From Escherichia coli (lineage in GTDB: Bacteria; Pseudomonadota; Gammaproteobacteria; Enterobacterales; Enterobacteriaceae): DNA of 64,000 nucleotides. A model generated the notes under the pieces. It worked only from the letters and a program-made list of their open reading frames with translations. It did not search any database and had not been told where the DNA came from. The position numbers and the translations under genes were made by a program. The stretch is from assembly GCF_003334385.1 (NCBI RefSeq), contig NZ_QOWN01000003.1; one strand, given 5' to 3'. Numbering within the stretch: position 1 is the stretch's first letter; each line of letters starts with the position of its first letter. Shown in pieces: positions 1 through 46,623 of the stretch.

Positions 1-883
1 GTACATTCAAAAGATCATAGACAAACGGCGTTGCGCCGAGCATACAGGTGCAACGCTGCTGCTCAAGCAGCGCGAGACACGCATCAGGAGTGAAAATATC
101 TAACAACACGCTGCGAGCGCCAATTAAGAATGGTGCCGTTACGCCATGCAGAAAGCCCGTTGCGTGACCAAGTGGCGCAGGCATCATAAAGACATCCTGC
201 CAGGTCAGATTCAGTCGCGCGCAATAAGCCCGCTCACTGGCGAGAATATTGTTATGCGTTAGCATCACGCCCTTTGGCAGACCCTCGGTTCCGGAGGTAA
301 ACAGCACCGCAGCTAATTCATCGCCGTGGGTCGTTATCGCCGTGGTCAGTGAGGTATTGTCGGCGATAATCTGACTTAATGAGAGGGAAGAGGTGGCGGG
401 AGCCAGTTTGTCCACGCCGACAATTTGTTGTAGTTGTGGAAGCTGATTTTGCAGCGGCAGGATTAAATCTACCGGACGCGTTTGTTTAAACAACGTCGGT
501 GCAAAGAACATTTTTGCCTGACACTTATTGAGCACCCACACCAGTTCTGCTTCCCGCCAGGAAGGCAACAGCGGCACGGAAACTGCACCGATTTTCAGGC
601 AGGCAAGATAGATAACGGTAAATTCACACCAGCCAGGCAGTTGAAATGCGATGCGATCGCCTGATTCAATACCCTTCGCTAACATCCAGTTTGCCAGACA
701 GCTCGCGGCGTGATCGAGCGCGCTATAGGTGTACGATGCACCATGATTATCGACCACGGCAATTTTGTCTGGCATCGCACGAGCGGTCTGCTGCCAGTAA
801 TCGGCCAGCGAAGCATCGCCCCATAACCCTTGCTGACGATACGCCGCACGACGTTGTTCGTTAAACGTTAATGTCACTTTCAT
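1..883 (-). CDS. fadK: acyl-CoA synthetase, N-terminal part only (gene runs off the window start)
   Basis: Reverse-strand ATG at 881-883, N-terminus MKVTLTFNEQRRAAYRQQGLWGDASLADYW..., and position next to ydiT match FadK (YdiD). Absent from the ORF track because it is truncated. Confidence 0.8.
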   Translation of the reverse strand, partial: MKVTLTFNEQRRAAYRQQGLWGDASLADYWQQTARAMPDKIAVVDNHGASYTYSALDHAASCLANWMLAKGIESGDRIAFQLPGWCEFTVIYLACLKIGAVSVPLLPSWREAELVWVLNKCQAKMFFAPTLFKQTRPVDLILPLQNQLPQLQQIVGVDKLAPATSSLSLSQIIADNTSLTTAITTHGDELAAVLFTSGTEGLPKGVMLTHNNILASERAYCARLNLTWQDVFMMPAPLGHATGFLHGVTAPFLIGARSVLLDIFTPDACLALLEQQRCTCMLGATPFVYDLLNV

Positions 884-939: not shown

Positions 940-1233
940 TTAGCCGTAGCGAAAATCAATACCGAAGGTGCCTGCGGGATATTGCCACTGTTCGAGAATA
1001 GTGTTACCGCACAGCACCCGACAGGTGCCGCACTCCAGACAACCGGCGGAATCAAAATGAATGTTTCCTGCGTCATCCTGCTTATAAAGTCCGGCAGGGC
1101 AGGCTTTCATTAATTTATGGAATTCATTGATATCGGGATTTTCCGCCAGAATGATATGCGGGTGGCCCTCATCAACATGGAATTTATTGACGCCTAATTT
1201 GATGTCGACGTTAACCGTAGCGTTCTGGCTCAT
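940..1233 (-). CDS. ydiT: ferredoxin-like protein (FixX-like)
   Basis: 97-aa ORF with a cysteine cluster (CLECGTCRVLC); stop overlaps the ydiS start; gene order ydiQRST. Confidence 0.85.
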   Translation of the reverse strand: MSQNATVNVDIKLGVNKFHVDEGHPHIILAENPDINEFHKLMKACPAGLYKQDDAGNIHFDSAGCLECGTCRVLCGNTILEQWQYPAGTFGIDFRYG

Positions 1234-2519
1234 AGCGCGGTTGCTCCCTTAATGCCATCTTTCAGCAAGTTGATCAGCCCAATTTTCTTCGCATGTCCCA
1301 TGATCATTTTTCGTACCGGCTGGTTTGGTTTGCCGTCGATGGTGAACATCTCGTTCATGATGTCGGCTACCATTCGTGGGTATTGGCTAAACAGGCGCGG
1401 GTTTTCCATCAGCGCCGGGATCTTGCGAAAATGCTGCATATCACGCATGACGCAGCTTTGTTCCAGCTCACGTTTGTATTGCGCCAGACTGCTGGCGGAG
1501 AAATCCGCGCGTTCTTTGGCGGCGATCACCGTTGTGGCGGCAGCCTGAGCCGATGCAATGGCTAAATCCATGCCGCGGACCGTAAAACCCAAATTCAGGC
1601 AGAAGCCTGCGGCGTCACCAACGATCATCACGCCCTCGTTAACCAGTTGCGGCACCATTGCCAGACCGCCTTCCGGCACCATATGCGCGGAATATTCAAG
1701 CAGTTTGCCGCCGCTAATCAGCGGGCGAATGGCGGGGTGTTGTTTAAAATCTTCCAGCATTTGCGGCACGCTTTTTTGCGCATGGGCGATATCACCCAAT
1801 CCACAAACCAGCCCCAAGGATATGGAATCCTTGTTGGTATAGAGAAATCCCCCGCCCATCAGGCCGTCAGAAGGGGAACCGGCAAACAGCCAGGCGGCAC
1901 CTTCCTCGCCCGTAATATTAAAGCGATCGTTGATCTGTTCTGGTGTGAGGCCAATAACCTCTTTAACACCAACAGCGTAATGATGCGGATCGGAAGCGGG
2001 AACCATTCCCAGCGAGCGGCCAAGCATCGAGTTAACGCCATCAGCCAGAATCACCACATTCGCTTCGAGAATATCATCCCCAGCCTGCACGCCAGTGACC
2101 TTGTTTCCTTCACGAACCAGCGCGTCGACGCGAACGCCTGGGATAAACTGCGCGCCCGCCTGCTCGGCTTGTTCCATCAACCACGGGTCCAGACGATTAC
2201 GCAATACGGTATAAGATGCGTGTTGCGGAACATCTGGCTGCTCGCGGTGAAAATCGAGGGTAACGGCGCTTTCTTCGGTTAAGAAGGAGATTTTCTCGCG
2301 TGTGACCTTGCGTTCTACCGGCGCTGATACTGCAAAGCCTGGAATGATTGCTTCAAGTGTGTGGGCATAAAGACGCCCGCCGGTCATGTTTTTACATCCG
2401 GCACTGTCGCCGCGTTCTATCACCAGGACATCCAGCCCGGCTCGTGCCATGACCAGTGCGGCAACGCTACCAGCAACGCCCGCACCGACCACAATGGCAT
2501 CAAATTTGTCATCCGACAT
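1230..2519 (-). CDS. ydiS: FAD-dependent oxidoreductase (FixC / ETF-quinone oxidoreductase-like)
   Basis: 429-aa ORF with an N-terminal dinucleotide-binding motif (VVGAGVAGS). Confidence 0.85.
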   Translation of the reverse strand: MSDDKFDAIVVGAGVAGSVAALVMARAGLDVLVIERGDSAGCKNMTGGRLYAHTLEAIIPGFAVSAPVERKVTREKISFLTEESAVTLDFHREQPDVPQHASYTVLRNRLDPWLMEQAEQAGAQFIPGVRVDALVREGNKVTGVQAGDDILEANVVILADGVNSMLGRSLGMVPASDPHHYAVGVKEVIGLTPEQINDRFNITGEEGAAWLFAGSPSDGLMGGGFLYTNKDSISLGLVCGLGDIAHAQKSVPQMLEDFKQHPAIRPLISGGKLLEYSAHMVPEGGLAMVPQLVNEGVMIVGDAAGFCLNLGFTVRGMDLAIASAQAAATTVIAAKERADFSASSLAQYKRELEQSCVMRDMQHFRKIPALMENPRLFSQYPRMVADIMNEMFTIDGKPNQPVRKMIMGHAKKIGLINLLKDGIKGATAL

Positions 2520-2574
2520 GCGTTATGCTCCCTTCCCGCTGCGTTTACAGCGGGAGATGTGGTTGAAAGGGGAA

Positions 2575-3513
2575 TTAGCGGCTCAACTGGCTAATCAGGG
2601 CAGGGACGACTTTGTAGATATCGCCCACCAGACCGTAGTCGGCATAGTTGAAGATTGGCGCATTTTTATCTTTATTGATGGCGACAATCACTTTTGCGCC
2701 GTTGCCGCCAACCATATGCTGGATCTGCCCGGAGATCCCCAGCGTCAGGTAGAGATCGGATTTCAGCAACACGCCGGAGACACCGATATAACGTTCACGC
2801 TCCATCCAGTTCTCGCCTTCGGCAATTGGACGTGAACAGCCGACTTCAGCATTCAGCACCGCCGCCAGTTCGTGGACCATTTTTAGGTCATCCTGCGCCG
2901 CCAGTCCACGACCGACGCCAACCACACGTTTTGCTTTGCTCAGGTCCACGCTGCTTGCGGCTTTCGCACGGCGTTCGCGACAGAGAATTTCATGACGCGG
3001 AGCAACATAAGGTACCGTTTCTGTCGGGCACTGATGAGAGGTATCACTGGTGCACGGTTCCTGAACACCGGGTGCAAGGGTAATGATCGCCAGCGGGCTG
3101 TTGATCTTTTCCTGAGCGAACGCTAACCCGCCATACATCCGGTGTTCGGCGCAAATGTGACCATCGACAATATCCACCGCCGTGGCATCGTTCACCAGCG
3201 CCGCATTCAGTTGCACACTTAACCGTGCTGCCAGCGCTTTACCACGTTTCGTCGCGGCCAACAGCAACATAGCGGGGTGTTTATCTTTCAGCAGGGCAGC
3301 AATGCTTTCGGCGTAATTTTCAGTGCGTTGCAGCGCGTCGTTTTGCGCAAGAACATAAAGACATTTTGGACCATAAGGCATAACTGCCTGCGCCTGGTCG
3401 GTATTTTGTACAATGGCATACACCTGTTGGCCCCATTGCTGAGCGCCGCCAAACAGTTCAGCATAACGTTCAGGATTATCGCTAAAGACCCAGACGCTGT
3501 TTAATTGACTCAT
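2575..3513 (-). CDS. ydiR: electron transfer flavoprotein, alpha-type subunit (FixB-like)
   Basis: 312-aa ORF between ydiQ and ydiS. Confidence 0.85.
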   Translation of the reverse strand: MSQLNSVWVFSDNPERYAELFGGAQQWGQQVYAIVQNTDQAQAVMPYGPKCLYVLAQNDALQRTENYAESIAALLKDKHPAMLLLAATKRGKALAARLSVQLNAALVNDATAVDIVDGHICAEHRMYGGLAFAQEKINSPLAIITLAPGVQEPCTSDTSHQCPTETVPYVAPRHEILCRERRAKAASSVDLSKAKRVVGVGRGLAAQDDLKMVHELAAVLNAEVGCSRPIAEGENWMERERYIGVSGVLLKSDLYLTLGISGQIQHMVGGNGAKVIVAINKDKNAPIFNYADYGLVGDIYKVVPALISQLSR

Positions 3514-3532
3514 CGTTTCTTCTCCGTAGGCT

Positions 3533-4297
3533 TCAGTTCAGGGCTTTCTTCAGATGTTCCGCCAGCTCGGCAATGGCCTCCGGCGAATCGTTATCGATAA
3601 TGATGTGCTTACGTTCTGTTTGCGGCGGTACGCGAATGCCGACCAGTTCAGCAAGTGGCGCGCTCTGGCTCCAGTCAATATCACTTGCCTGCCACTGATT
3701 TACCGGTTTTTTACCCGCGCCGAGAATGGCTTTCATCGAAGGAATGCGTGGCACGTTAATATCGGAGGTGACGCAGAGCACGGCTGGAACAGAGAGTTCA
3801 ATAACTTCAACATCATCTTCAAGCGTGCGTTCAATCACCAGTGTATTGCCCTGACGCTGAATAGCACTCACTGCATTAATCACCGGAAGTTGCAGAATTT
3901 CTCCGACCAGCAAGCCAACCTGCTGGGCATAAAGGTCGCCGGAACCTTCACCAAAGATCAGTAAATCGAAGCCGATCTTTTCAATTGCTGCCGCCAGCGC
4001 TTTTGCGGTATCGAGAGGCAGTGCATGTTCAAGTTGCGCATCCTGCACCAAATACAGGCTGTGCGGCCCGCGGGATAGCACGTCTTTGCGCACTTTCGAG
4101 TTCTGCAACAATGAGCCGCCAACGGTCAGCGCGGCTATCTCATCGTCATCTGTTGCGAGCTGGCTTGCAGCTTCAATGGCATTGAGATCGAACTGGCTGA
4201 TTTTGGCGTCGGCATTGTCGAAATTCAGGGTGTATTCTGGAGTGACAACAATGTCCTGTTCTTCAGGCACCAGCTTAAAGCAGGTTATTATTTTCAT
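3533..4297 (-). CDS. ydiQ: electron transfer flavoprotein, beta-type subunit (FixA-like)
   Basis: ORF track gives 3533..4396; likely start is the internal ATG at 4295-4297 (MKIITCFKLVPEEQD...), preceded by a Shine-Dalgarno-like AGGAGA, giving about 254 aa. Confidence 0.8.
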   Translation of the reverse strand: MKIITCFKLVPEEQDIVVTPEYTLNFDNADAKISQFDLNAIEAASQLATDDDEIAALTVGGSLLQNSKVRKDVLSRGPHSLYLVQDAQLEHALPLDTAKALAAAIEKIGFDLLIFGEGSGDLYAQQVGLLVGEILQLPVINAVSAIQRQGNTLVIERTLEDDVEVIELSVPAVLCVTSDINVPRIPSMKAILGAGKKPVNQWQASDIDWSQSAPLAELVGIRVPPQTERKHIIIDNDSPEAIAELAEHLKKALN

Positions 4298-13299: not shown

Positions 13300-13436
13300 C
13301 GTGTAATGGCTGCATGAAATAAACAATAAAATATAAATAACATTATCAGCCTGCTGACGGCTTGAAGAGAGTCACAGTATCTTGTGCAACATTATTGGAA
13401 AGAGTGAGGGGCGAGGTAGCGAAGCGGAAAAATGTT

Positions 13437-13542
13437 AAAAAAAAGCCCATCGTGGGAGATGGGCAAAGACTACACACAGCAATTCGTTGTTTCACTCAGG
13501 GGATTTCCATGCTTATAAATCAATATGTTGATTTATAACCGT
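13437..13542 (-). ncRNA. rprA: RprA small regulatory RNA (RpoS translational activator)
   Basis: Reverse complement reads ACGGTTATAAATCAACATATTGATTTATAAGCATGGAAATCCCC...CCCATCTCCCACGATGGGC followed by a T-run (terminator hairpin); matches RprA as recalled, between ydiL and ydiK. Confidence 0.85.
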
Positions 13543-13727: not shown

Positions 13728-14840
13728 TTACTTATTCGGTTTCTCGATTTCGCCAAGTTCTTCGAGAATTTCTTCCGGTTGGTCCGTCGGCGGCGGGACT
13801 TCTTCCACCCACGCGGCAAACAGACGCCAGGAAACGGCTAACAGAACCGGACCAATAAACAGACCGATCATCCCGAAAGCAATCAAACCACCAATAACGC
13901 CAGAGAGAATCAGGATCAGCGGTAAATCGGCACCCATGCGAATTAACATTGGGCGGATGACGTTATCCAGCGTGCCAACCACACCGCTCCACACTAACAA
14001 TACCGTTCCCCAGGTGGTATCGCCAGTCCAGTAGAGCCAGATAATCGCCGGAATCAGTACCGGCAACGGGCCAAGCTGGACAAGGCAGGAGAGGATCATT
14101 AACACCGTTAGCAACGTTGCATAAGGTACGCCGGATACGGCGAGGCCGATACCGCCAAGCACTGCCTGTACTAACGCCGTCACCACCACACCCAGCGCCA
14201 CCGCGCGGATAGCCTGTGCCGCCAGCAGCACGGCGGCATCTCCGCGAACGCCTGCCAGACGGGTTGCAAAATGGCGAATGCCTTGTGCCACCTGTTCACC
14301 GCGCCAGTACAGCAGGGCACTGAAGAGAAGCATCAGCGCACAATGCACCATAAAGCGCCCGATATGCGCCGCCTGCCCAACGAACCAGGTGGTGGTGGTG
14401 CCAATATAAGGGCGGACTTTCGCCATGATCGCCGTCCCCCCCATATCCAGCAAGTTGTGCCAGCCTGCATACAGCTTCGCGCCAATCACCGGAATGGTAT
14501 TAAGCCACGCCAGATCGGGTAACGTCATGTCACCGCTGGAAATGGCTTTAATTAGCGGGCCGCTGCCGTCGACGATACTGTTAACCAGCAAAGCAATAGG
14601 GATGATAAACACCATCACTAATAACAGCGTCATCACCAGAACGGCGAGAGAGCGGCGGCCAAACATGATCTTTTGCAAACGTAACAATACCGGCCAGGTG
14701 GCGATAACCACCGTACCGGCCCATGCAAAGCCGAGAATAAAGGGTTGAACAATCCACAGACATGCCACAATCATGATGGCTAAAAACAGCACCGAAAGCA
14801 GAATTTGTGCGACATCCCTGGGCTGACGAACATTTACCAT
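13728..14840 (-). CDS. ydiK: inner-membrane protein, AI-2E / PerM (UPF0118) family transporter
   Basis: 370-aa polytopic ORF. Confidence 0.82.
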   Translation of the reverse strand: MVNVRQPRDVAQILLSVLFLAIMIVACLWIVQPFILGFAWAGTVVIATWPVLLRLQKIMFGRRSLAVLVMTLLLVMVFIIPIALLVNSIVDGSGPLIKAISSGDMTLPDLAWLNTIPVIGAKLYAGWHNLLDMGGTAIMAKVRPYIGTTTTWFVGQAAHIGRFMVHCALMLLFSALLYWRGEQVAQGIRHFATRLAGVRGDAAVLLAAQAIRAVALGVVVTALVQAVLGGIGLAVSGVPYATLLTVLMILSCLVQLGPLPVLIPAIIWLYWTGDTTWGTVLLVWSGVVGTLDNVIRPMLIRMGADLPLILILSGVIGGLIAFGMIGLFIGPVLLAVSWRLFAAWVEEVPPPTDQPEEILEELGEIEKPNK

Positions 14841-15228
14841 AACTACTTTTCACCTTTTTTGTGCGTCAAATCGTCGACGCGACGTGAACACGCGAAACTC
14901 ACCTGCATAATGATGAGCAATTTCAGCGGTTTTTAACAGGCCGATTCTGCCCTTAATTCTGATGGGCGTGTTAGAAAAAAATGTGGTACAACAACTCAGG
15001 CAACACGCAAACGATTTACTCGTCGTATTTCAAGTTGCATGTGCTGCGGCTACGTTCGTTCACCCCAGTCACTTACTATTGTAAGCTCCTGGAGTTCACT
15101 CGCTTGCCGCCTTCCTGCAACACGAAATCCATAGAGTAAACAAACATCACCTTTCAGTGCGCTATTGCAGCAGCCTGAAAGAATAGTGTATCGACCTACA
15201 TCACAGACCGCAGGAAAGGGTCAATATA

Positions 15229-18200
15229 ATGATTCCACAGATTTCCCAGGCACCCGGCGTCGTTCAACTGGTGCTTAATTTTTTGCAAGAGCTGGAGCAA
15301 CAAGGTTTTACCGGCGATACGGCGACAAGTTATGCCGATCGTCTGACAATGTCGACCGACAACAGTATTTACCAACTTCTCCCCGATGCGGTGGTATTTC
15401 CGCGTTCAACCGCAGATGTGGCGCTGATCGCCCGTCTTGCCGCGCAGGAACGCTATTCATCGCTGATCTTTACCCCCCGCGGCGGCGGCACCGGCACTAA
15501 CGGTCAGGCGCTCAACCAGGGGATTATTGTTGATATGTCCCGCCATATGAACCGCATCATCGAAATTAACCCTGAAGAGGGCTGGGTGCGCGTTGAGGCC
15601 GGGGTGATAAAAGATCAACTCAATCAGTACCTGAAACCGTTCGGCTACTTTTTTGCGCCGGAACTTTCGACCAGCAACCGGGCAACGCTCGGTGGGATGA
15701 TCAATACCGATGCATCCGGTCAGGGATCGCTGGTCTATGGCAAAACGTCAGATCACGTACTTGGCGTACGCGCGGTGTTGTTGGGGGGCGATATTCTCGA
15801 TACGCAACCTTTACCCGTCGAATTGGCGGAAACGCTGGGTAAATCCAATACCACAATCGGGCGAATTTATAACACGGTTTATCAACGTTGCCGTCAGCAA
15901 CGCCAGTTAATTATCGACAACTTCCCCAAACTTAACCGCTTTCTTACCGGTTACGATCTGCGTCATGTCTTTAACGATGAGATGACCGAGTTCGACCTGA
16001 CGCGCATTCTGACGGGTTCAGAAGGGACGCTGGCCTTTATTACCGAAGCGCGGCTGGATATTACACGCTTGCCTAAAGTGCGCCGTCTGGTGAACGTCAA
16101 ATATGACTCTTTTGACTCTGCGCTGCGTAACGCGCCGTTTATGGTTGAGGCGCGGGCGCTTTCGGTAGAGACGGTGGACTCAAAAGTGCTGAATCTGGCG
16201 CGGGAAGATATTGTCTGGCATTCCGTCAGCGAGTTGATTACCGATGTGCCTGACCAAGAGATGCTCGGGCTGAACATTGTGGAATTTGCTGGTGATGATG
16301 AGGCGCTGATTGATGAGCGGGTAAATGCACTCTGTGCGCGGTTGGATGAGCTGATCGCCAGTCATCAAGCAGGTGTCATCGGCTGGCAGGTGTGCCGTGA
16401 GCTGGCGGGGGTTGAACGTATCTATGCAATGCGCAAAAAAGCCGTTGGTCTGCTTGGCAATGCCAAAGGTGCCGCTAAGCCAATTCCGTTTGCTGAGGAT
16501 ACCTGCGTACCGCCGGAACACCTGGCGGATTATATTGCTGAATTTCGCGCGCTGCTCGACAGCCACGGCTTAAGCTACGGTATGTTCGGTCACGTCGACG
16601 CAGGTGTCTTGCACGTCCGTCCAGCGCTGGATATGTGCGATCCTCAACAAGAGATTTTGATGAAGCAAATCTCTGATGACGTGGTGGCGCTGACTGCGAA
16701 ATACGGTGGTTTGTTGTGGGGCGAGCACGGCAAAGGTTTTCGCGCTGAATACAGCCCGGCGTTTTTCGGTGAGGAACTTTTTGCAGAACTGCGCAAAGTG
16801 AAAGCGGCATTTGACCCGCATAACCGACTCAACCCAGGGAAGATTTGCCCGCCAGAAGGTCTCGATGCGCCGATGATGAAAGTGGACGCGGTGAAGCGCG
16901 GTACATTCGATCGGCAGATCCCCATTGCGGTACGCCAGCAGTGGCGCGGTGCGATGGAGTGTAACGGCAACGGTTTATGCTTCAACTTTGATGCCCGTAG
17001 TCCGATGTGTCCGTCGATGAAGATCACCCAGAACCGGATTCATTCACCGAAAGGGCGCGCAACGCTGGTGCGTGAATGGCTGCGTTTGTTGGCGGATCGC
17101 GGCGTTGATCCACTCAAACTGGAACAAGAACTGCCTGAATCCGGCGTCAGTTTGCGGACGTTAATTGCCCGCACGCGCAATAGCTGGCATGCGAATAAAG
17201 GCGAATATGACTTCTCACACGAAGTCAAAGAGGCGATGTCGGGCTGTCTGGCCTGTAAAGCGTGTTCGACCCAGTGCCCCATCAAAATTGATGTGCCGGA
17301 GTTTCGCTCTCGTTTTCTGCAGCTCTATCACACCCGTTATTTACGCCCGCTGCGCGACCACCTCGTCGCTACGGTCGAGAGCTACGCGCCGCTGATGGCA
17401 CGCGCGCCGAAAACCTTTAACTTCTTCATTAACCAGCCGCTGGTGCGCAAACTCTCGGAAAAACATATCGGCATGGTTGATTTGCCGCTGCTGTCGGTCC
17501 CCTCGCTACAACAACAAATGGTGGGGCATCGCTCGGCAAACATGACGCTGGAACAGCTTGAATCTCTCAATGCAGAGCAGAAAGCGCGCACAGTGTTGGT
17601 GGTGCAGGACCCCTTTACCAGCTATTACGATGCGCAAGTGGTGGCGGATTTTGTCCGTCTGGTCGAAAAATTAGGTTTCCAGCCTGTGTTACTGCCATTT
17701 TCGCCAAATGGCAAAGCCCAGCATATTAAAGGTTTTCTTAATCGTTTTGCGAAGACGGCGAAAAAGACGGCGGATTTCCTCAACCGTATGGCGAAGCTGG
17801 GTATGCCAATGGTGGGCGTCGATCCGGCGCTGGTACTTTGTTATCGCGATGAATATAAACTGGCGCTGGGCGAGGAGCGTGGCGAGTTTAACGTCTTACT
17901 GGCGAATGAATGGCTGGCAAGCGCACTTGAGTCACAGCCAGTGGCTACAGTCAGCGGTGAATCATGGTATTTCTTTGGTCACTGTACCGAAGTTACCGCC
18001 TTGCCGGGTGCGCCAGCACAATGGGCCGCGATATTTGCCCGTTTTGGCGCGAAACTGGAAAATGTCAGCGTGGGTTGCTGCGGCATGGCAGGGACTTACG
18101 GACATGAAGCGAAAAACCATGAAAATTCGCTCGGGATCTATGAGTTATCCTGGCATCAGGCTATGCAGCGACTGCCGCGTAACCGCTGTCTGGCGACCGG

Positions 18201-18285
18201 ATATTCCTGCCGTAGCCAGGTAAAACGGGTTGAAGGCACGGGGGTACGCCATCCTGTGCAGGCTTTACTGGAGATTATTAAATGA
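15229..18285 (+). CDS. ydiJ: FAD-linked oxidoreductase fused to Fe-S and CCG domains
   Basis: 1018-aa ORF with an N-terminal FAD-binding motif (RGGGTGTNGQA), 4Fe-4S-type cysteine clusters (CNGNGLCFNFDARSPMCPS; CLACKACSTQCP) and a C-terminal CCGMAG motif. Confidence 0.85.
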   Translation: MIPQISQAPGVVQLVLNFLQELEQQGFTGDTATSYADRLTMSTDNSIYQLLPDAVVFPRSTADVALIARLAAQERYSSLIFTPRGGGTGTNGQALNQGIIVDMSRHMNRIIEINPEEGWVRVEAGVIKDQLNQYLKPFGYFFAPELSTSNRATLGGMINTDASGQGSLVYGKTSDHVLGVRAVLLGGDILDTQPLPVELAETLGKSNTTIGRIYNTVYQRCRQQRQLIIDNFPKLNRFLTGYDLRHVFNDEMTEFDLTRILTGSEGTLAFITEARLDITRLPKVRRLVNVKYDSFDSALRNAPFMVEARALSVETVDSKVLNLAREDIVWHSVSELITDVPDQEMLGLNIVEFAGDDEALIDERVNALCARLDELIASHQAGVIGWQVCRELAGVERIYAMRKKAVGLLGNAKGAAKPIPFAEDTCVPPEHLADYIAEFRALLDSHGLSYGMFGHVDAGVLHVRPALDMCDPQQEILMKQISDDVVALTAKYGGLLWGEHGKGFRAEYSPAFFGEELFAELRKVKAAFDPHNRLNPGKICPPEGLDAPMMKVDAVKRGTFDRQIPIAVRQQWRGAMECNGNGLCFNFDARSPMCPSMKITQNRIHSPKGRATLVREWLRLLADRGVDPLKLEQELPESGVSLRTLIARTRNSWHANKGEYDFSHEVKEAMSGCLACKACSTQCPIKIDVPEFRSRFLQLYHTRYLRPLRDHLVATVESYAPLMARAPKTFNFFINQPLVRKLSEKHIGMVDLPLLSVPSLQQQMVGHRSANMTLEQLESLNAEQKARTVLVVQDPFTSYYDAQVVADFVRLVEKLGFQPVLLPFSPNGKAQHIKGFLNRFAKTAKKTADFLNRMAKLGMPMVGVDPALVLCYRDEYKLALGEERGEFNVLLANEWLASALESQPVATVSGESWYFFGHCTEVTALPGAPAQWAAIFARFGAKLENVSVGCCGMAGTYGHEAKNHENSLGIYELSWHQAMQRLPRNRCLATGYSCRSQVKRVEGTGVRHPVQALLEIIK

Positions 18286-18692
18286 TATGGAAACGGAAAA
18301 TCACCCTGGAAGCACTGAATGCTATGGGTGAAGGAAACATGGTGGGGTTCCTGGATATTCGCTTTGAACATATTGGTGATGACACCCTTGAAGCGACAAT
18401 GCCAGTAGACTCGCGGACAAAGCAGCCTTTCGGGTTGCTGCATGGAGGAGCATCCGTGGTACTGGCCGAAAGTATCGGTTCCGTTGCCGGTTATTTATGT
18501 ACCGAAGGTGAGCAAAAAGTGGTTGGTCTGGAAATCAATGCTAACCACGTCCGCTCGGCACGAGAAGGGCGGGTGCGCGGCGTATGCAAACCGTTGCATC
18601 TCGGTTCGCGTCACCAGGTCTGGCAGATTGAAATCTTCGATGAGAAAGGGCGTTTGTGCTGTTCGTCACGATTGACGACCGCCATTTTGTGA
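18282..18692 (+). CDS. menI: hotdog-fold thioesterase (1,4-dihydroxy-2-naphthoyl-CoA hydrolase; ydiI)
   Basis: 136-aa ORF whose start overlaps the ydiJ stop (ATGA). Confidence 0.82.
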   Translation: MIWKRKITLEALNAMGEGNMVGFLDIRFEHIGDDTLEATMPVDSRTKQPFGLLHGGASVVLAESIGSVAGYLCTEGEQKVVGLEINANHVRSAREGRVRGVCKPLHLGSRHQVWQIEIFDEKGRLCCSSRLTTAIL

Positions 18693-18791
18693 CGTTGTCA
18701 CCAGAAAAGTGTGACGCATATTGCTTTTGGTCATTATCTGCACAGTAAACGGTGGTATACTGTGCAGGTCTTGTCTAAAAGCGAGGATGCT

Positions 18792-18980
18792 ATGTCTACT
18801 CAACTTGATCCCACCCAGCTGGCCATTGAATTTTTACGCCGTGACCAGAGCAATCTTTCACCTGCCCAATATCTCAAACGTCTGAAACAACTAGAACTTG
18901 AATTTGCTGACCTGCTTACTCTCTCTTCTGCTGAATTAAAAGAAGAAATCTACTTTGCCTGGCGTCTGGGCGTGCATTGA
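18792..18980 (+). CDS. ydiH: small protein of unknown function
   Basis: ORF track 18711..18980; start taken at ATG 18792 (MSTQLDPTQLAIEF...), about 62 aa. Confidence 0.6.
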   Translation: MSTQLDPTQLAIEFLRRDQSNLSPAQYLKRLKQLELEFADLLTLSSAELKEEIYFAWRLGVH

Positions 18981-19149
18981 TCCTGACTTAATGCCGCAAG
19001 TTCGCCAAATCGACCTGGATTAACCTCCGTCCAGGTTCGATGACCTTCTTAATACTGCTTATCTACCGCCTGATATTGTTCAAAAATAATACTAATCGCA
19101 GTTTGTGTTAAAACGGCGGGTTAGCTTTATGAGATTATTCTTATCGCCC

Positions 19150-19246
19150 CTTCAAGAGCTAAGCCACTGAGAGTGCCGGAGATAAGCGCCGGATGGGGTA
19201 GAAACCCTTAAGCCTGTGTCGCACAGACTTAAGGGTTTTCTTATTT
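19150..19246 (+). ncRNA. putative small RNA or terminator structure in the ydiH-sufA spacer (position consistent with RydB)
   Basis: Long imperfect hairpin AAACCCTTAAG...CTTAAGGGTTT (19202-19238) followed by a T-rich tract on the plus strand, about 220 nt from the ydiH stop. The boundaries are approximate, and the strand is inferred only from the terminator. Confidence 0.3.
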
Positions 19247-19467
19247 CTGAACGCTGCACTTTTTTACCTATCTCTTAAATAGTCATTTTCAATACAACTT
19301 TTTCTTTTTCATCACAGCCTTAATGCTCCTTAGATAATAACCATTATCTAACAATGAGATACCTAATTCTTAGCGTGCCTGTTAACCCACACATCAGGGT
19401 CTATGCTTATTAAAAGCAGGCAAAAAGCATGTTTTACGGTAAAGCCCCTGCGTTTGCTGGGTTGAAC

Positions 19468-19483
19468 TGATAATCATTATCAC
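19468..19483. promoter_or_regulatory. Fur box in the sufA promoter region
   Basis: TGATAATCATTATCAC matches the Fur consensus core (GATAATGATAATCATTATC), about 45-60 bp upstream of the sufA start codon. Confidence 0.6.
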
Positions 19484-19527
19484 TAACATGCTGTTATACG
19501 CTGAAAGCGATGAAGTGAGGTAAATCG

Positions 19528-19896
19528 ATGGACATGCATTCAGGAACCTTTAACCCACAAGATTTCGCCTGGCAAGGCTTAACGCTGACACCCGCAGCGG
19601 CGATACACATCCGTGAGCTGGTGGCAAAGCAGCCGGGTATGGTCGGCGTGCGCTTAGGCGTGAAGCAAACGGGCTGCGCGGGCTTTGGCTATGTGCTCGA
19701 CAGTGTTAGCGAGCCGGACAAAGACGATCTGCTGTTTGAACACGACGGCGCGAAGCTGTTTGTCCCGCTGCAAGCGATGCCGTTTATTGATGGCACGGAA
19801 GTCGATTTCGTTCGTGAAGGACTTAATCAGATATTCAAATTTCACAACCCTAAAGCCCAGAATGAATGTGGCTGTGGCGAAAGCTTTGGGGTATAG
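19528..19896 (+). CDS. sufA: Fe-S cluster assembly A-type carrier
   Basis: 122-aa ORF with a C-terminal CGCGESF motif; first gene of sufABCDSE. Confidence 0.92.
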
Positions 19897-36908: not shown

Positions 36909-37214
36909 TCAGGCGAGTTTTGCCTGATTGATTTGACTAAGTGGCTCATTGACATCGAAAACTTTGGCGACAACTTCCTCAACGCCGAGATTTTTCAGTC
37001 GGGCAGTATGTTTTTCCAGATAGGCAAGGGCGCTTTTTTCATCAGTGAAAAGGTAGATCCCACCGGCTTCGTGGTTCTTTTCACTTTCTGTCCATACCTT
37101 CCACAGAAAACCAGGTTCCTGATTAATCGACTCAGCAAGTGGTTTAAGCTGCTCAGCCATTGCGTCGCCAAATGGGCCATTAAAAGCAAAATGAAGTTGT
37201 AACAAAGTTGCCAT
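36909..37214 (-). CDS. ydhR: small putative monooxygenase-like protein
   Basis: 101-aa ORF next to the tRNA-Val pair. Confidence 0.75.
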
Positions 37215-37321
37215 AGCGATTCTCCTTCTGATAACGCATACGAAGACAGTGTAAATCTTTTAACGTATTGGATACAGAGAAGAAACAGAGGGAAAAAGGA
37301 GAAGACCAGATTAAGAAAATC

Positions 37322-37398
37322 TGGTGCGTCCGAGTGGACTCGAACCACCGACCCCCACCATGTCAAGGTGGTGCTCTAACCAACTGAGCTACGGACGC
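37322..37398 (-). tRNA. valW: tRNA-Val (GAC)
   Basis: Reverse complement reads GCGTCCGTAGCTCAGTTGGTTAGAGCACCACCTTGACATGGTGGGGGTCGGTGGTTCGAGTCCACTCGGACGCACCA: cloverleaf-compatible, GAC anticodon, 3' CCA. Confidence 0.93.
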
Positions 37399-37402
37399 AG
37401 GA

Positions 37403-37479
37403 TGGTGCGTTCAATTGGACTCGAACCAACGACCCCCACCATGTCAAGGTGGTGCTCTAACCAACTGAGCTATGAACGC
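37403..37479 (-). tRNA. valV: tRNA-Val (GAC)
   Basis: Reverse complement reads GCGTTCATAGCTCAGTTGGTTAGAGCACCACCTTGACATGGTGGGGGTCGTTGGTTCGAGTCCAATTGAACGCACCA; tandem copy 4 nt from valW. Confidence 0.93.
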
Positions 37480-46070: not shown

Positions 46071-46114
46071 TCCATTTCACTCCAGACCCTAACTTCAGCT
46101 CCTGCAAAATCGCA

Positions 46115-46130
46115 AGGTAAACGTTTGCCT
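46115..46130. promoter_or_regulatory. PUR-box-like operator in the purR leader
   Basis: AGGTAAACGTTTGCCT matches the PurR operator consensus ACGCAAACGTTTGCGT at 13 of 16 positions, about 45-60 bp upstream of the purR start codon. Confidence 0.5.
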
Positions 46131-46368
46131 TTACACACCTTACGCACAACAAAAGTGTTGCGGTACGCCGGAAAAACGACACGGAGCGTCAGGAAGGGGT
46201 CAATGGCCAGTACGCAAATAGTGTAAGCGTGGAATTTTGGCCGATCTTGACGAAAAGGGGAAGTGGTAAAAACACTTATCATTATAAATGACGGGAGATT
46301 TTTTCATCACAGTGTGTAAAAATGCGTAATATCACTTTTTGTGTGGTAATAAAAAAGGAGAAAACTTG

Positions 46369-46458
46369 ATGAGCACCGACCTTAAATTTTCACTGGTAAC
46401 AACGATTATCGTCCTCGGTTTGATCGTAGCCGTGGGTTTGACTGCCGCGCTGCACTGA
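46369..46458 (+). CDS. ynhF: 29-aa single-TM small membrane protein
   Basis: Not in the ORF track. ATG at 46369 preceded by Shine-Dalgarno AAGGAG (46355-46360); encodes MSTDLKFSLVTTIIVLGLIVAVGLTAALH; a stem-loop follows the stop. Matches the small protein YnhF as recalled. Confidence 0.6.
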   Translation: MSTDLKFSLVTTIIVLGLIVAVGLTAALH

Positions 46459-46623
46459 TTTCCTCTCGAGGGAGCGCGTTCTCCCTCGCATCTCCTTCCT
46501 GTTTGTTAGCAAAATGGCAAAAGTGTTTTCTCTTTTTGTTATTTTCATTTTTTTGTGATTGCTGTCATGCTTTCGCCACTTTAATGAATATCGCGTAATG
46601 ACGCGAAGAGGTGGAGATAAGGC

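Follow-up and report, generated by a model that had tools for sequence, protein, structure and literature searches.

The gene ydiJ lies in a 64,000-nucleotide stretch of Escherichia coli DNA (contig NZ_QOWN01000003.1; the window, below, means this whole stretch). Its open reading frame (ORF) very probably encodes the cell's only dehydrogenase for D-2-hydroxyglutarate (D-2-HG), a single polypeptide that joins a GlcD-type flavin half to an iron-sulfur (Fe-S) module and would deliver its electrons to quinone. The function of ydiJ is already known, being both published and part of standard annotation, and there is no new biology in that assignment. New here are the invariance of 11 cysteines across the family, the adjacency of serA and D-2-HG synthase genes in relatives of YdiJ, and the non-conservation of the overlap between ydiJ and menI.

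All 3057 bases match ydiJ of E. coli K-12 MG1655 (100% identity), and the surroundings in the window correspond to the chromosomal ydi-suf region of K-12. The frame is translated without interruption, and the opposite strand of the same stretch is rich in stops. With the NCBIfam equivalog NF049975, named "D-2-hydroxyglutarate dehydrogenase YdiJ", the protein reaches 1727.9 bits (cut-off 1350) and the alignment is full-length, with residues 1-1016 on model positions 1-1017 of 1018. A search of 5426 complete E. coli genomes matched ydiJ in 5424, where the RefSeq product name is likewise "D-2-hydroxyglutarate dehydrogenase YdiJ", and returned no match in the other 2. The presence of a ydiJ gene here is far beyond chance, and the first-pass annotation, made from the DNA letters and a list of reading frames, was right in both the gene name and the 1018-residue ORF. 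The start codon is sound, since distant homologs align from residue 1. Among the 5425 matches, 2 are plasmid-borne, and one genome carries two copies. A further E. coli entry (P0082, 946 residues) is 99% identical to YdiJ over only 53% of the query, which suggests a disrupted ydiJ allele.

The activity of the enzyme has been established by others. Samsonov et al. (2022; PMC9504171) purified YdiJ from E. coli and Pantoea ananatis, found that it appears tetrameric, and obtained a Km for D-2-HG of 83 μM with the E. coli protein. The tetramer is reported at 440 kDa, and the activity measured with a dye as acceptor is 1.1 U/mg. The enzyme was inactive on L-2-HG, D- and L-lactate, D- and L-malate, tartrate, glycerate, glutarate, and pyruvate; in all, D-lactate and ten other acids supplied at 5-10 mM gave no detectable activity. 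Deletion of ydiJ led to accumulation of D-2-HG to 4.2 g/L, and to 25 g/L when SerA was overexpressed, the accumulation and assays coming from ordinary aerobic cultures. In a second study (PMC12297413, Nat Commun 2025), removal of the whole gene, of the GlcD part, or of the GlpC part resulted in equal D-2-HG accumulation, indicating that both halves of YdiJ are needed in vivo, and deletion of serA abolished the accumulation. Bacteria form D-2-HG as a by-product when they make serine, and in humans it is an oncometabolite; enterobacteria recycle it through YdiJ, an enzyme already employed for strain engineering and biosensors. The idea of a fused flavin/Fe-S 2-hydroxyacid dehydrogenase, which the first-pass annotation had put forward, is borne out by the published activity and by the Pfam domains described below. 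Its guess at the substrate named D-2-HG or a compound like D-lactate. The former agrees with both studies and with the RefSeq and NCBIfam names, and the latter is ruled out by the published substrate screen. The quinone link that it also suggested remains a proposal.

Flavin dehydrogenase half and iron-sulfur module

Conservation was scored over a set of 126 sequences, made up of E. coli YdiJ and 125 full-length homologs that each represent a cluster at 50% identity; the homologs are 31-59% identical to the E. coli protein. A plain homolog search is unsuited to this purpose, as its best 120 matches are all at least 89% identical.

By their domain matches, residues 1-540 are a GlcD/VAO-type dehydrogenase dependent on flavin adenine dinucleotide (FAD), with a conserved His-His-Glu-His site. 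Both Pfam domains of this class, FAD_binding_4 and FAD-oxidase_C, are present (Table 1), and together with the four-residue site they place the protein among the VAO/PCMH GlcD-type FAD dehydrogenases. The motif RGGGTGTNGQA, taken earlier as the signature of such an enzyme, does lie within FAD_binding_4, and its R84, G85, G86, T88, and T90 are nearly invariant. In the second domain, H455, H462, E499, and H500 have aligned counterparts in GHLGDGNLH...AEHG of human D2HGDH (6lpn) and also in mouse LDHD (8jdc). Each of the four is found in 125 of the 126 family sequences. We take it that the equivalent residues bind metal in the D2HGDH and LDHD structures. Relatives of known structure detected by sequence, namely LctD, a glycolate oxidase, mouse LDHD, and human D2HGDH, all align within this half of the protein. 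The GlcD model TIGR00387 also matches it (E 9.3e-56). The NCBIfam equivalogs remain out of reach for GlcD (189 vs 568 bits and 116 vs 897 bits) and for GlcE (47 vs 284 bits). An identification of YdiJ as the glycolate oxidase GlcDEF is rejected on these scores and on the poor GlcF alignment given next.

Residues 545-1018 are best described, from alignments and a predicted structure, as a module of the GlpC/HdrD/EtfD type, consisting of a ferredoxin-like domain and two domains with the CCG fold. The NCBIfam GlpC model aligns with residues 664-1016 at E 1.3e-31, though below its cut-off (109.9 vs 278 bits), and a second GlpC equivalog gives 45.2 vs 279.9 bits. With BLASTP, residues 549-1018 match E. 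coli GlpC at E 2e-11 (20% identity over ~360 residues), whereas GlcF is found at only E 0.001 and in fragments. By these comparisons YdiJ is a homolog of GlpC without being GlpC itself. Of the "GlcD-GlcF-style fusion" proposed earlier, the joining of a GlcD-type N-terminal half to an Fe-S half stands, but the C-terminal half is nearer to GlpC than to GlcF, and GlcD-GlpC is therefore the better name.

A sequence search of the PDB with the C-terminal half yields nothing meaningful (best E 0.29). Residues 545-1018 were modeled with AlphaFold from a 30-sequence alignment, and the model (predicted local distance difference test, pLDDT, 92.9; predicted template-modeling score, pTM, 0.90) was compared with the PDB using Foldseek. 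The best match is Mycobacterium smegmatis EtfD (9ojn; E 4e-5, template-modeling score on the query, TMq, 0.50), followed by LutA (score on the target, TMt, 0.66) and three HdrB chains, 5odc_B among them (TMt 0.55-0.56); the probability is 1.00 for all of these matches, which are the established Fe-S proteins with tandem CCG domains. No membrane helix was found in YdiJ, the highest 19-residue Kyte-Doolittle mean being 1.22. An amphipathic helix is seen at residues 836-853.

The family shares eleven cysteines, each seen in 124-126 of the 126 sequences: C578, C584, C594, C673, C676, C679, C683, C919, C950, C951, and C994. The same constancy is shown by H918, G991, and the proline of either CP pair, while C540, C871, C987, and every N-terminal cysteine are not conserved. 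Seven of these cysteines belong to the ferredoxin-like region, which Pfam identifies as Fer4_8. The canonical group C673/C676/C679/C683 is kept in 125-126 of the 126 sequences. The preceding group is shorter by one: relative to the GlpC/GlcF pattern, cysteines one and four correspond to C584 and C594, F587 and R590 stand where cysteines two and three would be, and C578 is extra. All three are found in 125 of 126 sequences, and this constancy argues that the apparently incomplete motif is a fixed trait of the family rather than a product of decay. GlpC, GlcF, and HdrD are characterized by two complete CxxCxxCxxxCP motifs, of which YdiJ has one (residues 673-684). The "two 4Fe-4S Cys clusters" reported earlier thus hold for C673-C683, but the other group offers three cysteines, with F587 and R590 in place of the missing ones.

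The two CCG-like domains differ in a similar manner. In the first, YdiJ has "DP" and "GKAQ" at the sites that correspond, on alignment to GlpC and GlcF, to GC and CCG, and C871 occurs in only 12 of 126 sequences. The second retains its ligands with the spacing C919-x30-C950C951G-x42-C994, and G991 is located at the first cysteine of the CxxC, as in GlcF; each of C919, C950, C951, C994, H918, and G991 is kept in 123-125 of 126 sequences. Set against the signature C-Xn-CCG-Xm-CxxC of this protein class, the CCG domain recognized from the CCGMAG motif at residues 950-955, which is the second, keeps its cysteines apart from the one replaced by G991, and the first has none.

Electron transfer, gene neighborhoods, and alternative explanations

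The first steps of the proposed pathway have been shown by others: SerA converts 2-ketoglutarate to D-2-HG as a side reaction of serine synthesis, and YdiJ returns D-2-HG to 2-ketoglutarate with strict substrate specificity. Electrons would then pass from reduced FAD to the cluster of the CCG domain, on to two clusters of the ferredoxin-like domain, and finally into the respiratory quinone pool, so that neither an electron transfer flavoprotein (ETF) nor an ETF-quinone oxidoreductase (ETF-QO) should be needed. The structure of EtfD (PMC13083937) provides the template. Its ferredoxin motifs hold two cubanes, each motif giving its fourth cysteine to the other cluster; CCG domain 1 carries a linear [3Fe-4S] cluster and CCG domain 2 a noncubane [4Fe-4S] cluster bound by five cysteines and a histidine, and together the domains act as an Fe-S wire that ends at menaquinone. 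FadF and DgcB, which are related to EtfD, are also without the first CCG cluster. Transferring this pattern to YdiJ by the logic of the alignment, we infer that C594, C673, C676, and C679 bind a cubane, that C578, C584, and C683 make up a three-cysteine site, and that C919, C950, C951, and C994 form the CCG site. A chemoproteomics preprint recognizes in YdiJ a complete ferredoxin motif alongside an incomplete one and names C673 and C683 as likely Fe-S ligands, and an AlphaFold-based survey predicts two 4Fe-4S sites and one 2Fe-2S site.

A more specific proposal can be offered tentatively. YdiJ-type proteins may be self-contained D-2-HG:quinone oxidoreductases that dispense with a membrane subunit and use a reduced form of the EtfD/HdrD wire. 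Besides the cubane of C594/C673/C676/C679, such a wire could include the C578/C584/C683 site at its quinone end, possibly as a [3Fe-4S] cluster like that of succinate dehydrogenase, and an unusual CCG cluster bound by C919/C950/C951/C994 and perhaps H918, the site in the first CCG domain having been lost.

Several observations weigh against electron transfer to quinone through the iron-sulfur module. In the chemoproteomics preprint, the reactivity of C594 is unchanged when Fe-S supply is disturbed, a misfit with C594 as a cubane ligand. Earlier work found that YdiJ as isolated contains FAD and a single [4Fe-4S] cluster rather than three clusters. The protein is also without the membrane domain and heme b by which EtfD reaches menaquinone. 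PMC9504171 gives the physiological electron acceptor as unidentified, and PMC12297413 proposes direct quinone use via the GlpC domain by analogy with PP4737 only. Finally, the Pfam CCG model (PF02754) does not match E. coli YdiJ even at E≤10, and among 30 family members it is detected in 0 at E≤0.001 and 8 at E≤0.1. The search with domain hidden Markov models (HMMs) that the first-pass annotation had suggested as a check thus recovers FAD_binding_4, FAD-oxidase_C, and Fer4_8, but not CCG. This miss is not taken as a refutation because the GlpC family model and the predicted fold point to a divergent domain; judging from the model, the tandem CCG fold is present in YdiJ in a form that the Pfam HMM barely detects.

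The acceptor might instead be a protein. YdiJ would then be a D-2-HG dehydrogenase that passes its electrons to a partner, soluble or membrane-bound, such as the ETF-like YdiQ/YdiR with YdiS/YdiT, or to a ferredoxin or flavodoxin, and not to quinone. We consider this unlikely. The position of PMC9504171 on the acceptor leaves room for a partner, as does the lack in YdiJ of any membrane helix and of the heme b membrane domain of its best structural match; the GlcD-only D2HGDHs use ETF and ETF-QO, and E. coli has the ETF homologs ydiQ, ydiR, ydiS, and ydiT within the window. However, the GlpC-like half is indispensable in vivo and the 11 cysteines are invariant, which fits a built-in wire better than an ETF docking surface. 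The ydiQRST genes are encoded on the other strand and form a distinct cluster together with ydiO, the gene for an acyl-CoA dehydrogenase, and an ETF gene adjoins none of 8 distant YdiJ homologs examined. YdiQRST probably serve the adjacent YdiO. PMC9504171 states that E. coli is without ETF homologs, whereas ydiQRST are present in the window.

It is quite unlikely that the proximity of menI betrays a functional tie by which the enzyme is dedicated to menaquinone and produced jointly with an enzyme of menaquinone synthesis. The stop codon of ydiJ and the ATG of menI overlap as ATGA (18282-18285), which suggests translational coupling of the two genes in E. coli; NCBIfam confirms MenI as the 1,4-dihydroxy-2-naphthoyl-CoA (DHNA-CoA) hydrolase, and the structural relative EtfD reduces menaquinone. 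Yet the linkage is not conserved, as a thioesterase gene stands next to the YdiJ homolog in 0 of the 8 distant cases, and the published D-2-HG accumulation and assays were obtained in ordinary aerobic cultures. A 58%-identical homolog has ydiK upstream and lpp/pykF downstream, with no menI. Such neighborhoods speak against any general connection with the synthesis of menaquinone, and the overlap is rejected as a general clue of that kind.

The same loci are informative about the substrate. In 2 of the 8 distant homologs, on unrelated contigs, a serA-like gene (2-Hacid_dh plus ACT domains, 409-415 residues) is located directly upstream of the YdiJ gene on the same strand. At another locus, that of homolog P0157, the upstream neighbor is a PF07063 hydroxyglutarate synthase (HGLS) gene, whose product converts 2-oxoadipate to D-2-HG. 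Saccharopine dehydrogenase and acyl-CoA dehydrogenase genes adjoin this locus, which looks like a lysine-catabolism context similar to that of Pseudomonas putida PP_4493. One of the 8 has a divergent LysR regulator. The serA and HGLS neighborhoods point to D-2-HG as the substrate of the family and give this assignment support independent of the biochemistry. A gene-order link between serA and YdiJ finds no mention in the YdiJ literature examined. That YdiJ really serves to oxidize D-lactate or glycolate, as an enzyme of the GlcDEF or Fe-S D-lactate dehydrogenase type with D-2-HG as a side activity, is highly improbable: the domain architecture common to Fe-S D-lactate dehydrogenases, the TIGR00387 match, and the lactate dehydrogenases and glycolate oxidase among the nearest structures would allow it, but it is contradicted by the substrate screen set against the Km for D-2-HG, by GlcD and GlcE equivalog scores far under their cut-offs, and by the D-2-HG producers serA and HGLS beside distant homologs. 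The cysteine map and the neighborhood data could guide work on the electron acceptor and the cluster types.

Other features of the region are included in Table 1. A scan of positions 14700-19600 for promoters and terminators gave no excess over the shuffled expectation (4 vs 4.3 and 4 vs 5.5, respectively). Two small RNAs, RprA (118.5 bits) and rydB (81.6 bits), flank the ydiJ-menI-ydiH unit. The ydiH ORF is named "YdiH family protein" by RefSeq and has no NCBIfam match at E≤0.001. Elsewhere in the window, Rfam hits fall at 46071-46461 (+), 37198-37360 (+), and 37325-37479 (-), and comprise STnc550 (396.5 bits) and HPnc0260, an antisense family that here overlaps a pair of tRNA genes encoded on the other strand.

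Table 1. Features of ydiJ, its product, and neighboring or homologous loci. Nucleotide positions refer to the window unless a homolog locus (L004, L006, L010) is given.
Feature	Residues	Nucleotides	Strand	Basis or remark
ydiJ coding sequence	1018 plus stop	15229-18285	+	ATG start; ORF list, translation, MG1655 identity, NF049975
Purine-rich Shine-Dalgarno-like AGGAAAGG		15212-15219	+	Read from sequence; 9 nt ahead of ATG
FAD_binding_4 (PF01565)	52-192	15382-15804	+	Pfam E 7e-38
RGGGTGTNGQA	84-94	15478-15510	+	Motif script; inside FAD_binding_4
FAD-oxidase_C (PF02913)	281-539	16069-16845	+	Pfam E 3.3e-68; substrate/cap domain
H455-x6-H462 ... E499-H500		16591-16728	+	Presumed metal/catalytic site of D-2-hydroxyacid dehydrogenases
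Fer4_8	577-687		+	Pfam E 1.9e-5
Non-canonical motif C578-x5-C584-x9-C594-P		16960-17013	+	First ferredoxin-like motif, three Cys
Canonical 4Fe-4S motif C673-x2-C676-x2-C679-x3-C683-P		17245-17280	+	Within Fer4_8
Degenerate first CCG-like domain	~788-880	17590-17868	+	Without conserved cysteine
Second CCG domain, C919 ... C950-C951-G ... C994		17983-18210	+	GlpC/GlcF alignment, motif script
CCGMAG	950-955	18076-18093	+	Inside second CCG domain
menI (1,4-dihydroxy-2-naphthoyl-CoA hydrolase)		18282-18692	+	RefSeq; NF007631, 312 bits vs cut-off 226
ydiH ORF	62 aa	18792-18980	+	Downstream of menI
ydiT, ydiS, ydiR, ydiQ (ETF-like set)		~940-4297	-	~11 kb from ydiJ; YdiS ETF-QO-like, YdiT ferredoxin
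RprA small RNA		13435-13542	-	Between ydiL and ydiK
rydB small RNA		19146-19206	+	Between ydiH and sufA
serA-like gene		L004 2515-3744	+	Directly upstream of YdiJ homolog P0122
serA-like gene		L006 2693-3940	+	Directly upstream of YdiJ homolog P0125
PF07063 HGLS gene		L010 2182-2994	+	Ends 7 nt before YdiJ homolog P0157

Comparison with known systems

The E. coli YdiJ of Samsonov et al. (2022; PMC9504171), described by NF049975, is the same protein, and the window carries this type member with no difference. P. putida PP_4493 shares the GlcD+GlpC architecture and the D-2-HG reaction, with a reported identity of 51% (PMC12297413). It differs in that it functions in D-lysine catabolism, is induced by D-2-HG via HgcR, and does not lie beside menI (10.1101/450254, PMC12297413), whereas E. 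coli YdiJ clears D-2-HG derived from SerA. Another P. putida enzyme, the Fe-S D-lactate dehydrogenase PP4737 (Jiang et al. 2017, cited in PMC12297413), compared here by its description, follows the same GlcD+GlpC fusion plan, and the title of its report names FAD, Fe-S, and quinone; it acts on D-lactate, a compound that is no substrate of YdiJ.

The GlcD-only D2HGDHs, such as the human (6lpn) and P. stutzeri enzymes, have the FAD fold, the His-His-Glu-His site, and the reaction in common with YdiJ. They are about half its length, have no Fe-S module, and pass electrons to ETF and ETF-QO (PMC9504171, PMC12297413), and their identity to the N-terminal half of YdiJ is just 23-25% (PMC9504171).

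GlpC, the Fe-S subunit of the anaerobic glycerol-3-phosphate dehydrogenase GlpABC, is homologous across the whole C-terminal half of YdiJ. It is, however, a subunit of its own, in which both CxxCxxCxxxCP motifs are complete and both CCG domains bear cysteines, where YdiJ has one complete and one three-cysteine motif and only the second CCG site. EtfD, HdrB, and LutA resemble the module in combining a ferredoxin-like dicluster domain with tandem CCG domains. EtfD has five transmembrane helices and heme b, receives its electrons from ETF, and binds cluster D2 through five cysteines and a histidine (PMC13083937). YdiJ, in contrast, has no membrane domain, brings its own FAD dehydrogenase, and offers four cysteines at the corresponding site, with the invariant G991 in place of the first cysteine of the CxxC.

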